A stretch of DNA of 64,000 bases from a virus, in IMG/VR virus record IMGVR_UViG_3300023174_000056, positions 1 through 64,000 of that record, one strand, 5' to 3'. The first letter of the stretch is position 1. Every line of letters begins with the position of its first letter. Shown one piece after another: positions 43,614 to 51,708 of the stretch. Position numbers and translations under genes: made by a program. A model generated the notes under the pieces. That model ran no database searches and had not been told where the DNA came from. It saw only the letters and a program-made list of their open reading frames with translations.

Positions 43614-44292
43614 TTTTTACCTCGTTATATGCTTTAATTGTTTCTGGAAACAAATCCTCAAGAATTTTTAGCATTGCTTCAGCAACTTTTTGGATTTCAA
43701 GTTGCGCTCCTTCGTGAGAGCGTAATTCAATAAACTTGAGAATGTTGTTAAGATTTGCACTTGCGTAATATTCAGTGTACATATTTTGTGGAAGAATTCC
43801 ACGGGCTTGTTCACGGCATACACCTTTTCGCATCATTTCTTCGTAGAGAAACACAGCAGCCAAATGGTGATCTCTGATAGCTCTTGAAGCTGTAACTTCT
43901 CCAAGTTCATAAACAATTGGATCAATTAAATCATCTTCATTGCTAGCCTGACGGTTTTTTTCATGTTGAGTTCTGAACTTCATTGGTTCATAAAATTCTA
44001 GATTCTCCGCTGTATAGCGACGAGAGATTTCATTGTATGACCAAGTACGATGCCGGTGATGCTGCGAACGGATAAAGAGCGGAACCTTTACCCGAAACGT
44101 AACAAAACAATGCTCTAACGTGCTTGTGTGCTTATGCTTAATAAGATAACGAATAAGTTTACGATCCTTGTCGTCTAGTTCAGATTTATGAACCCCAAAT
44201 GATACCCGAGCAGAATTAACAATAGTAAGGTCTGAACCGATAGAGTCAACAAGTTCAACTTTTCCAATCCCATCTCCATATATATCAATCAT
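43597..44292 (-). CDS. thyX: FAD-dependent thymidylate synthase
   Basis: ARVS, H.S.LEH, RHRTWSYNEISRRY, EQARGILP, AQLEI. Confidence 0.97.
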   Translation of the reverse strand: MIDIYGDGIGKVELVDSIGSDLTIVNSARVSFGVHKSELDDKDRKLIRYLIKHKHTSTLEHCFVTFRVKVPLFIRSQHHRHRTWSYNEISRRYTAENLEFYEPMKFRTQHEKNRQASNEDDLIDPIVYELGEVTASRAIRDHHLAAVFLYEEMMRKGVCREQARGILPQNMYTEYYASANLNNILKFIELRSHEGAQLEIQKVAEAMLKILEDLFPETIKAYNEVKNGTKL

Positions 44293-50880: not shown

Positions 50881-51278
50881 TATTTACCCCTTGGATATTG
50901 CTTATAAATCTCTTCAACTGTTAAATCAAGAATTTCATTAGCATAATCTTCGGCATCGAGCCAATGTTCTTGACAGCGAATGTACCAAGCAATTGCTTCT
51001 TGGATTTCATTACGTTCTTTCTGCATTTCGTCAGCAAAATCAGCCTCGCAGCCAATTATTGTAACGGCCATTTTAGCCCTATCTAATAGGGTTGTTTCTA
51101 TTTCCTTGCCGTCAATAGTTACAAGCCCAGCTGGGTATAGTGCTTCGTAGGCTTCTTTTATTTGAGCTTTTAAATTTTTATTTTCTTCCAATAATTCTTC
51201 GTAAGTCATATTATCCTCAAAATTTGTAAGTTCCAATAAATTCATTATCAACAGAATAATAAACCTGCCTGATACCAC
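50880..51278 (-). CDS. Hypothetical protein
   Basis: Likely start MTYEEL after GAGG. Confidence 0.6.
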   Translation of the reverse strand: MVSGRFIILLIMNLLELTNFEDNMTYEELLEENKNLKAQIKEAYEALYPAGLVTIDGKEIETTLLDRAKMAVTIIGCEADFADEMQKERNEIQEAIAWYIRCQEHWLDAEDYANEILDLTVEEIYKQYPRGK

Positions 51279-51655
51279 GCTCCTGCATTAATGCATGACA
51301 CATAGTGCAAGGCTTGCTCATTCTGTCTTCTTTTTTACCCTTAGAAGCTCTTGCAACATACATAATAGCGCCCTTAGTTTGCGAGCGAGGAATGTTAAGA
51401 AGAGCTTTAACCTCTGCGTGATACGTAGAAACACCTTTTTCTTCGGGACGAAACTTTGCACCAACAGAAGAATACTTTTCAGAATTAATACCGAGATTAA
51501 TGACAGCACCGCCCCTAACAAGAACAGCACCATGACGAAAATTACCATAAGTTGAACATTCTGCCATTTTCTTAGCTAACTGAAAGATACCTCCGTACTC
51601 TGTTGCTTGTATCCTTCTTTGCTACAATAATCTCCTGCGGGTCGTCGTTGTCCAT
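51217..51655 (-). CDS. Zn-dependent cytidine/dCMP-type deaminase, predicted 145 aa via +1 frameshift at 51586-51583
   Basis: HGA, HAE, PCTMC; upstream ATG 51655 has AGGAGG and a promoter but is one base out of frame. Confidence 0.8.
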
Positions 51656-51664
51656 AAAGTAGAA

Positions 51665-51708
51665 CCTCCTAGTGTTCTCATACTACCACTAGGAGGCTCA
51701 GTTGTCAA
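51665..51708 (-). promoter_or_regulatory. Promoter nested in an RBS-containing hairpin
   Basis: TTGACA-N17-TAGTAT; inverted repeat CCTCCTAGTG/CACTAGGAGG. Confidence 0.8.

Follow-up and report, generated by a model that had tools for sequence, protein, structure and literature searches.

The window analysed here, 64 kb of viral DNA (positions 1 to 64,000 of IMG/VR record IMGVR_UViG_3300023174_000056), is part of the 168-kb genome of a freshwater phage with a GC content of 34.6% (G000), and carries on its minus strand, at positions 51217–51708, a deaminase gene whose coding frame is broken close to its 5′ end. A short open reading frame (ORF1) begins at ATG 51655 and ends CGG AGG TAT CTT TCA GTT AGC TAA, and the zinc motifs of the enzyme are encoded downstream in the +1 frame (ORF2). 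We consider it very likely, from the comparative sequence analysis below, that the deaminase is produced through programmed +1 ribosomal frameshifting of the type known from prfB, stimulated by an internal Shine–Dalgarno (SD) sequence and with a sense codon in the ribosomal A site. The features of the locus are as follows.

51680–51708, minus strand: sigma-70-type promoter-like site, TTGACA-17 nt-TAGTAT (10 of 12 matches, TG ahead of the −10)
51665–51670, minus strand: ribosome binding site (RBS) AGGAGG, 9 nt upstream of ATG 51655
51572–51655, minus strand: ORF1, frame 0, 27 codons, MDNDDPQEIIVAKKDTSNRVRRYL-SVS-stop, the stop being TAA at 51574–51572
51590–51594, minus strand: internal SD-like GGAGG (as CGG AGG), 3 nt 5′ of the shift codon
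51587–51589, minus strand: spacer TAT, the E-site codon at the shift (TAT, TTA or TTT in relatives)
51583–51586, minus strand: shift site CTT_T, with T 51583 skipped and re-pairing from CUU to UUU proposed
51583–51581 and 51582–51580, minus strand: competing A-site codons, TCA (Ser) in frame 0 and CAG (Gln) in the +1 frame, respectively
51217–51582, minus strand: ORF2, +1 frame, QLAKKMAEC..., with HAE and PCTMC zinc motifs and a stop codon at 51219–51217

A preliminary description of this DNA had proposed the promoter, the AGGAGG RBS, the 27-codon ORF and their join to a 145-aa protein by a one-base skip, and every one of these sequence statements was correct on re-reading. When T 51583 is skipped, MDNDDPQEIIVAKKDTSNRVRRYL continues into QLAKKMAEC..., reading ...RVRRYL-QLAKKMAEC... 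across the junction, and the product (P0001) has 145 aa in total, in which ORF1 codons 1–24 encode the strand at the N-terminus and the opening half of the deaminase's helix 1. The TTGACA...TAnnAT pattern recurs in the close relatives L002 and L003 (alignment A1). The deaminase is listed as a 116-codon ORF (51567–51217), whose ATG at 51567 is preceded by TAAGAAA and, as had been pointed out, has no SD. The remark that the internal SD is written in uncommon Arg codons was likewise accurate, CGG and AGG being the two rarest Arg codons of G000 (3% and 7% of Arg, respectively). The 12-mer GGAGG-N3-CTTY has a single match in the window, against 0.57 expected, and this is its only occurrence in the 168-kb genome; alone, it is not beyond chance in one window, and the cassette is significant because it is placed exactly at the frame break and is conserved in relatives.

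The close clade was sampled by scans of viral and metagenome contigs and by look-ups by protein, giving 52 distinct coding sequences (CDS), of which 40, from more than 30 metagenome assemblies, are frameshifted and 12, from 11 lineages, are in frame. Pairwise protein identity among the 40 frameshifted relatives has a median of 67% and a minimum of ~50%. No close relative was found among GenBank phages by megablast, the best tblastn matches were in-frame deoxycytidine monophosphate (dCMP) deaminases of Streptomyces phages at 38% identity, and no member of this deaminase family was found in the bacterial genomes searched. The preliminary description had suggested looking for the same broken frame and SD in homologues, and both are kept in the 40 distinct relatives; it had also counted in-frame close homologues as evidence against a frameshift, and most homologues are frameshifted instead.

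The extra base is retained in all 40 relatives, and the skipped base is T or C in every case. The SD region reads CGGAGG in 37, AGGAGG in one and AAGAGG in two (GGAGG in 38, GAGG in two), the spacer is always 3 nt long (TAT in 35, TTA in three, TTT in two), and the shift codon is CTT in 37 (CTT_T or CTT_C) and CTC in three (CTC_C). At the +1 codon we found CAG in 36 (36/36 Gln) and AAG in four (4/4 Lys). The frame-0 A-site codon is TCA, CCA or CAA across the lineages, followed by G, and no examined member has a stop codon there; without exception among the 40, the frame-0 codon ends in A and the +1 codon in G. Ribosomes that stayed in frame 0 would meet a stop codon within 2–8 codons in 39/40 sequences, mostly TAA. 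Relatives with a shifty stop (CTT TAA) had been guessed from GGIFK... N-termini of proteins, and their DNA reads CTT CAA G.

Synonymous choice is frozen within the cassette (CGG 37/38, AGG 40/40, TAT 35/35, CTT 37/40, CAG 36/36), and the Gln of the +1 frame is always CAG, yet CAA makes up 81% of Gln codons genome-wide. Nearby invariant residues outside the cassette use three to six codons, as seen for Arg +15 (CGT 20, AGA 11, CGG 5, CGC 2, CGA 2) and Leu +1 (six codons). The base directly before GGAGG is C in 37/40 frameshifted genes, whereas it is A in most of the in-frame genes that keep the SD. Selection follows the break. In the 17 gap-free relatives, the 20 codons 5′ of the cassette have a ratio of nonsynonymous to synonymous change (pN/pS) of 0.41 when read in the ORF1 frame, and the other frames give 1.8 and 1.5; for the 40 codons 3′ of the site, the deaminase frame gives 0.18 and the ORF1 frame 3.1. 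By these values, the coding frame really does switch at the site. A downstream stimulatory RNA structure was sought, and none is conserved (consensus fold −1.7 kcal/mol, single-sequence z-score −0.35), and therefore the linear cassette would be the signal.

The 12 in-frame CDS show what the joined protein should look like: most read CTT CAG, encoding RRYL-QLAKK, which is the exact product predicted for the slip, and others read CTT TCG (RRYL-S) in one case and CTG AAG or CTG AAA in two. Several members of this group are nested among frameshifted genes and are therefore interpreted as reversions by loss of one base. The in-frame L001 is sister to the frameshifted L022 (support 98/95), and a 22-row clade with 95% support unites 19 frameshifted with three in-frame members; the reversions that are well supported are confined to those nested in this clade. 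Each of the nested revertants has disrupted GGAGG by a synonymous change of its own (CGA AGG; CGG AGA; CGC AGG with CTG). Conservation, the frame switch of selection and the in-frame RRYL-QLAKK relatives all support the earlier claim that a prfB-like +1 cassette is needed for the full deaminase, and since dozens of divergent phages keep both the broken frame and the signal, we regard it as a real recoding site.

In the mechanism that we propose by analogy with the experiments on prfB, ribosomes would initiate at ATG 51655 and translate 24 codons, so that tRNA-Leu would occupy the P-site codon CUU and the 16S anti-SD would pair with GGAGG 3 nt upstream. The short distance to the SD and the weak hold on the E-site tRNA at UAU would together destabilise the P-site pairing, and the peptidyl-tRNA would re-pair in the +1 frame, from CUU to UUU (UUC in relatives). 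CAG (Gln) would then be decoded in place of UCA and the 145-aa enzyme finished, and ribosomes that do not slip would terminate three codons on, leaving a 27-aa peptide. Because the A site holds a sense codon, the slip would compete with aminoacyl-tRNA selection and not with a release factor. A skipped base that is always a pyrimidine would fit a G34 tRNA-Leu re-pairing on UUU or UUC. Probably only a minority of ribosomes would be diverted, and by analogy with engineered sense-codon RF2 cassettes the slip is likely to be less efficient than the 30–50% of prfB.

The elements of the cassette agree with what is established for such sites: an SD placed 3 nt ahead of the shift codon promotes +1 shifting, and among shift sites CUU_U works most efficiently (PMC5009743, PMC10798248). 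Weaker codon–anticodon pairing in the E site leads to more shifting, with UAU, UUA, UUG and UUU being the codons that show the fastest release and the highest RF2-type frameshifting in E. coli (PMC2377451), and the E-site codons of the deaminase family (UAU, UUA and UUU) all fall within these four. In G000, SD cores lie 7–9 nt before 53% of 157 ORF starts, against 5% background; initiation in the phage is thus SD-dependent, and the anti-SD should therefore be available in the infected cell. The protein bS21 controls anti-SD availability in some bacteria (PMC10798248), and the Pfam S21 model had no match at E ≤ 0.001 in G000, G001, G002, G003 and G005, which leaves a connection between bS21 and the SD-driven shift unsupported.

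Several observations weigh against a programmed frameshift or narrow what can be claimed for it. In-frame CDS occur within the clade, and the frameshift is therefore dispensable. Seven of the 12 in-frame CDS still have GGAGG-TAT-CTY, and the SD is in part accounted for by ancestry and by the Arg-Arg residues that it encodes. Loss of GGAGG seemed tied to the in-frame state (GGAGG in 38/40 frameshifted vs 7/12 in-frame CDS, Fisher p = 0.005), but only two independent pairs lie on supported branches and the association is not significant phylogenetically. A first tree suggested that the frameshift is ancestral to the whole clade, and with more in-frame members the base was not resolved. With a sense codon and no pause element, the efficiency may amount to a few percent. 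Finally, three lineages read TTA CTC C, and there tRNA-Leu would re-pair poorly, its new codon being UCC. The variant cassette GGAGG TTA CTC C(A/C)A G is seen at L046, L047, L050, L051 and L055 (~position 600 of the locus), and because the deaminase frame reads Tyr-Ser in the TTA CTC C lineages, preserving the conserved Tyr, the exact shift position is uncertain there; the shift may take place one codon earlier or without re-pairing.

Some further features of the in-frame genes bear on the history of the site. GGAGG-TAT-CTT-C is kept in frame in L108–L110, L113, L145, L146, L150 and L151, where a +1 slip would hit an early stop (the +1 frame reads AGT TAG in L146 and L151), and AGG AGG stands in place of CGG AGG in four in-frame lineages (L108–L110, L146, L150, L151). 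Relatives at a greater distance (~45% identity) have an unbroken frame and no SD, although some of them already read AGG TAT CTT. A plausible history is that a shift-prone in-frame stretch encoding Arg-Arg-Tyr-Leu came to tolerate the insertion of one base, and that the insertion was later maintained. In L147, L148 and L149 a gene resembling GIY-YIG/NUMOD3 homing endonucleases lies directly 3′ of the in-frame deaminase; elements of this type could promote gene conversion between alleles with and without the frameshift.

The locus can also be read without any frameshift, ORF1 being a leader and the deaminase a 116-aa protein made from ATG 51567 by termination–reinitiation at the TAA at 51574–51572, 4 nt upstream, and we regard this as very unlikely. 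Several features do suit such an arrangement: an ATG stands at codon +5 in the window and in 21/40 relatives, abutting or overlapping the frame-0 stop, this stop lies at +3 or +7 codons in 36/40, a geometry typical of translational coupling, and the 116-aa ORF passes the cut-off of PF00383 (49.7 bits, cut-off 25). The other 19 relatives, however, have Leu at the position of this Met, and in six lineages the deaminase frame offers no ATG, GTG or TTG before codon +21, which lies inside strand 1; an independent start for ORF2 is not conserved. Purifying selection acts on the residues of ORF1, and these correspond by homology to the N-termini of in-frame relatives, with which P0001 aligns end to end at equal length. 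The fused form raises the PF00383 score to 56.7 bits and extends the match back from profile position 17 to 5, the alignment to PHROG 174 spans residues 13–136 and so crosses the junction at 24/25, and tblastn matches to phage dCMP deaminases begin at residues 15–17, upstream of it. AlphaFold2 modelling of P0003, a naturally in-frame homologue with 83% identity, gave a predicted local distance difference test score (pLDDT) of 92, with the strand at 9–12 and helix 1 at 18–32 confident; in this model the residues corresponding to ORF1 build the strand and half of helix 1, the junction falls in the middle of that helix, and a protein begun at Met 30 would miss both the strand and the helix. Reinitiation also leaves the frozen CGG AGG TAT CTT and CAG unaccounted for. 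Still more improbable, to the point of being hardly credible, is an assembly or sequencing error, or the decay of a pseudogene. A lone extra base beside a TTT run in one metagenome contig would be suspect if taken alone; against this, more than 30 assemblies contribute 40 distinct sequences that all have it, as T or C, the T run is just 3 nt long, and both halves are under purifying selection, each in its own frame.

The broken frame has left its mark on public annotation. Gene callers systematically mis-start the family, as is seen from the N-termini of its protein clusters: at least 45 clusters of a 5.8-billion-protein set read GG[IYF][FS]QLAKK, so that the cassette has been translated in the deaminase frame as GGIF, GGYF, GGFF or GGYS followed by QLAKK, and a further 27 clusters begin just past the junction. 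The public calls (clusters P0006–P0085) mostly begin at a chance ATG, TTG or GTG in the deaminase frame, as in MQATEFGGIFQLAKK, and the false N-termini give proteins of 116–146 aa. The automatic names of these clusters vary between dCMP deaminase, cytidine deaminase and TadA, the last used in some JGI names.

The most economical reading of the enzyme is that it is dCMP-deaminase-like and supplies dUMP in an AT-rich phage, dCMP being its putative substrate. The motifs HAE (79–81) and PC..C (115–119) are invariant (alignments A2 and A3) and are the zinc motifs of the cytidine deaminase (CDA) superfamily. The best Foldseek matches are dCMP deaminases, namely human DCTD (2w4l) and those of Streptococcus mutans (2hvw), phage T4 (Cd, 1vq2) and cyanophage S-TIM5 (4p9e), with E ~1e-5, a template modelling (TM) score of ~0.57 and 17–24% identity. 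PHROG 174, "dCMP deaminase", is matched at 2e-20. No NCBIfam equivalog was reached (ComEB scored 19–22 bits vs a cut-off of 219), and a phmmer search of the PDB by sequence gave no match. TadA was considered and set aside: NCBIfam gave no TadA match, and the first TadA-derived chain among the Foldseek matches stands at rank 46, with a TM score of 0.47. The genome encodes the thymidylate synthase ThyX at 43642–44256 on the minus strand (PF02511, E 1.6e-48), and no ThyA-type enzyme was found in it; ThyX is the likely consumer of the dUMP made by the deaminase. The likeness to dCMP deaminases thus comprises the CDA fold, the HAE and PCxxC motifs and a ThyX partner in the phage genome, and the recoding site would throttle the yield of an enzyme that would feed dUMP to the phage ThyX.

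To our knowledge, SD-stimulated +1 frameshifting in bacteria is textbook knowledge for essentially prfB alone, in which the pause and the feedback both come from a stop codon. The phage gene shares with prfB an ORF1 of ~25 codons, a body in the +1 frame, an SD (GGGGG/GGAGG) 3 nt before the shift codon, UAU in the E site, CUU_U and the lack of a downstream RNA structure, and the 12 nt GGAGGUAUCUUU fit the RF2 pattern (PMC5009743, PMC10798248). It differs in that the gene sits in phages, in that CUU_C and CUC_C variants occur, and in that UCA, CCA or CAA, each with a G after it, occupies the A site, whereas prfB has UGA followed by C; moreover, the product is a CDA-fold deaminase, and a feedback loop of the RF2 type is therefore impossible. 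Curran and Yarus, and Gallant, reportedly studied engineered RF2 cassettes with a sense codon at the UGA position and hungry-codon frameshifting in E. coli, the latter summarised in PMC5009743, and in these systems shifting is inverse to the speed of aminoacyl-tRNA selection. These systems have the same SD-N3-CUU_U followed by a sense codon, and they are laboratory constructs or starvation effects, in contrast to the natural and conserved case described here.

Sense-codon sites are also known from yeast, where Ty1, ABP140/TRM140 and EST3 (CUU_AGG_C, CUU_AGU_U) resemble the phage site in that tRNA-Leu on CUU slips +1, the A site holds a sense codon and aminoacyl-tRNAs compete (PMC5009743); they differ in being eukaryotic, in lacking an SD stimulator and in relying on the rare tRNA Arg-CCU. 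Phage PSA likewise has genes that use +1 ribosomal frameshifting (PMC5009743). Its shifts, however, occur on a proline codon beside a stop codon or a pseudoknot and yield a C-terminally extended second product, whereas in the phage deaminase the shift would be near the 5′ end, SD-driven and obligatory for any functional product. A 2016 review lists prfB as the SD-stimulated +1 case and knows of no natural bacterial trans-frame protein from hungry-codon frameshifting (PMC5009743). Our full-text literature searches returned no report of a frameshifted phage deaminase, and the recoding site is apparently undescribed.

Ten tRNAs are encoded by the phage, at 339–2638 of the window and at 152894–152967 of G000, and those that read A-ending codons are Ser-UGA, Arg-UCU, Gln-UUG, Glu-UUC, Lys-UUU, Leu-UAA, Ile-UAU and Gly-UCC; this set suggests a host less AT-rich than the phage. 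The phage tRNA-Ser(UGA) named in the preliminary description is present at 339–428, and from it a role of the site had been deduced: the frameshift would be a sensor or timer for Ser-tRNA(UGA), pausing on UCA, so that the enzyme is made when this tRNA is scarce or destroyed and is turned off as the phage tRNA accumulates, maybe with feedback through tRNA editing. In support, the window has UCA in frame 0 together with the cognate tRNA, eight of the ten phage tRNAs read A-ending codons, so that the host may decode such codons slowly at the start of infection, every frame-0 codon ends in A and every +1 codon in G, and tRNA-Gln(UUG) is present in a 100%-complete relative whose site is CAA. Yeast sense-codon +1 sites follow a like logic in Ty1 and in ABP140/TRM140, a tRNA-modification gene (PMC5009743). 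Against it, the frame-0 codon differs by lineage (Ser UCA, Pro CCA, Gln CAA), and UCA is the commonest Ser codon of the phage (29%), just as TCA, CCA and CAA are each the commonest codon of their family by phage usage, from which the host tRNA pool may differ. G001, a 96% complete genome with a UCA site, has 14 tRNA matches and no tRNA-Ser(UGA) among those typed, and no tRNA-Pro was seen in the three records with a CCA site, which are fragmentary. Overall, a phage tRNA matches the frame-0 codon in two of three near-complete genomes, which is uninformative. Fold and profile matches favour dCMP deaminases over TadA, and ThyX is encoded in the genome, both of which count against autoregulation by tRNA editing. 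In view of the variable frame-0 codon, the commonness of UCA and the tRNA set of G001, we consider a specific sensor or timer of Ser-tRNA(UGA) unlikely and, as a trait of the whole family, unsupported.

A more general dependence on decoding speed appears somewhat less doubtful. The A-ending and G-ending pattern would fit slow decoding of the frame-0 codon and fast decoding of the +1 codon in a less AT-rich host, and the yield of enzyme would track the relative speed of the two. As a tentative possibility, the site may act as a kinetic switch rather than as a constant throttle, in which case the share of slipping ribosomes is set by the tRNAs for A-ending (UCA, CCA, CAA) versus G-ending (CAG, AAG) codons and changes during infection; accumulation of phage tRNAs, cleavage of host tRNAs or starvation, and the availability of the anti-SD on phage-modified ribosomes may drive such a change.

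The surroundings of the gene are given to replication and nucleotide metabolism. In the window the deaminase gene adjoins that of a flap endonuclease, and in relatives its neighbours are a 5′–3′ exonuclease, DnaB or a GIY-YIG endonuclease. Within the promoter-like site, the 17-nt spacer is complementary to the gene's own RBS (arms 51662–51674 and 51687–51699, minus strand, 13 nt, 92%); RNA reading through from upstream could mask the RBS, whereas RNA begun at the ORF1 promoter could not.

A programmed frameshift of this kind would place the SD, E-site and P-site machinery of prfB in a family of phage enzyme genes and combine it with a sense codon in the A site. The cassette has been kept over a long evolution, down to ~50% protein identity, with few in-frame reversions. 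In practical terms, the family is mis-annotated by gene callers, as proteins of 116–138 aa, and carries false N-termini in its public entries. It also forms a natural variant series for kinetic models of +1 frameshifting, in which the E-site codon and the frame-0 codon each take three forms, the shift codon is CTT or CTC, the skipped base is T or C, and revertants occur with or without the SD, and it bears on productive sense-codon ("hungry") frameshifting beyond yeast. Should the site indeed act as a kinetic switch, it would be the first natural case in a bacterial system of hungry-codon frameshifting that yields a functional trans-frame protein.

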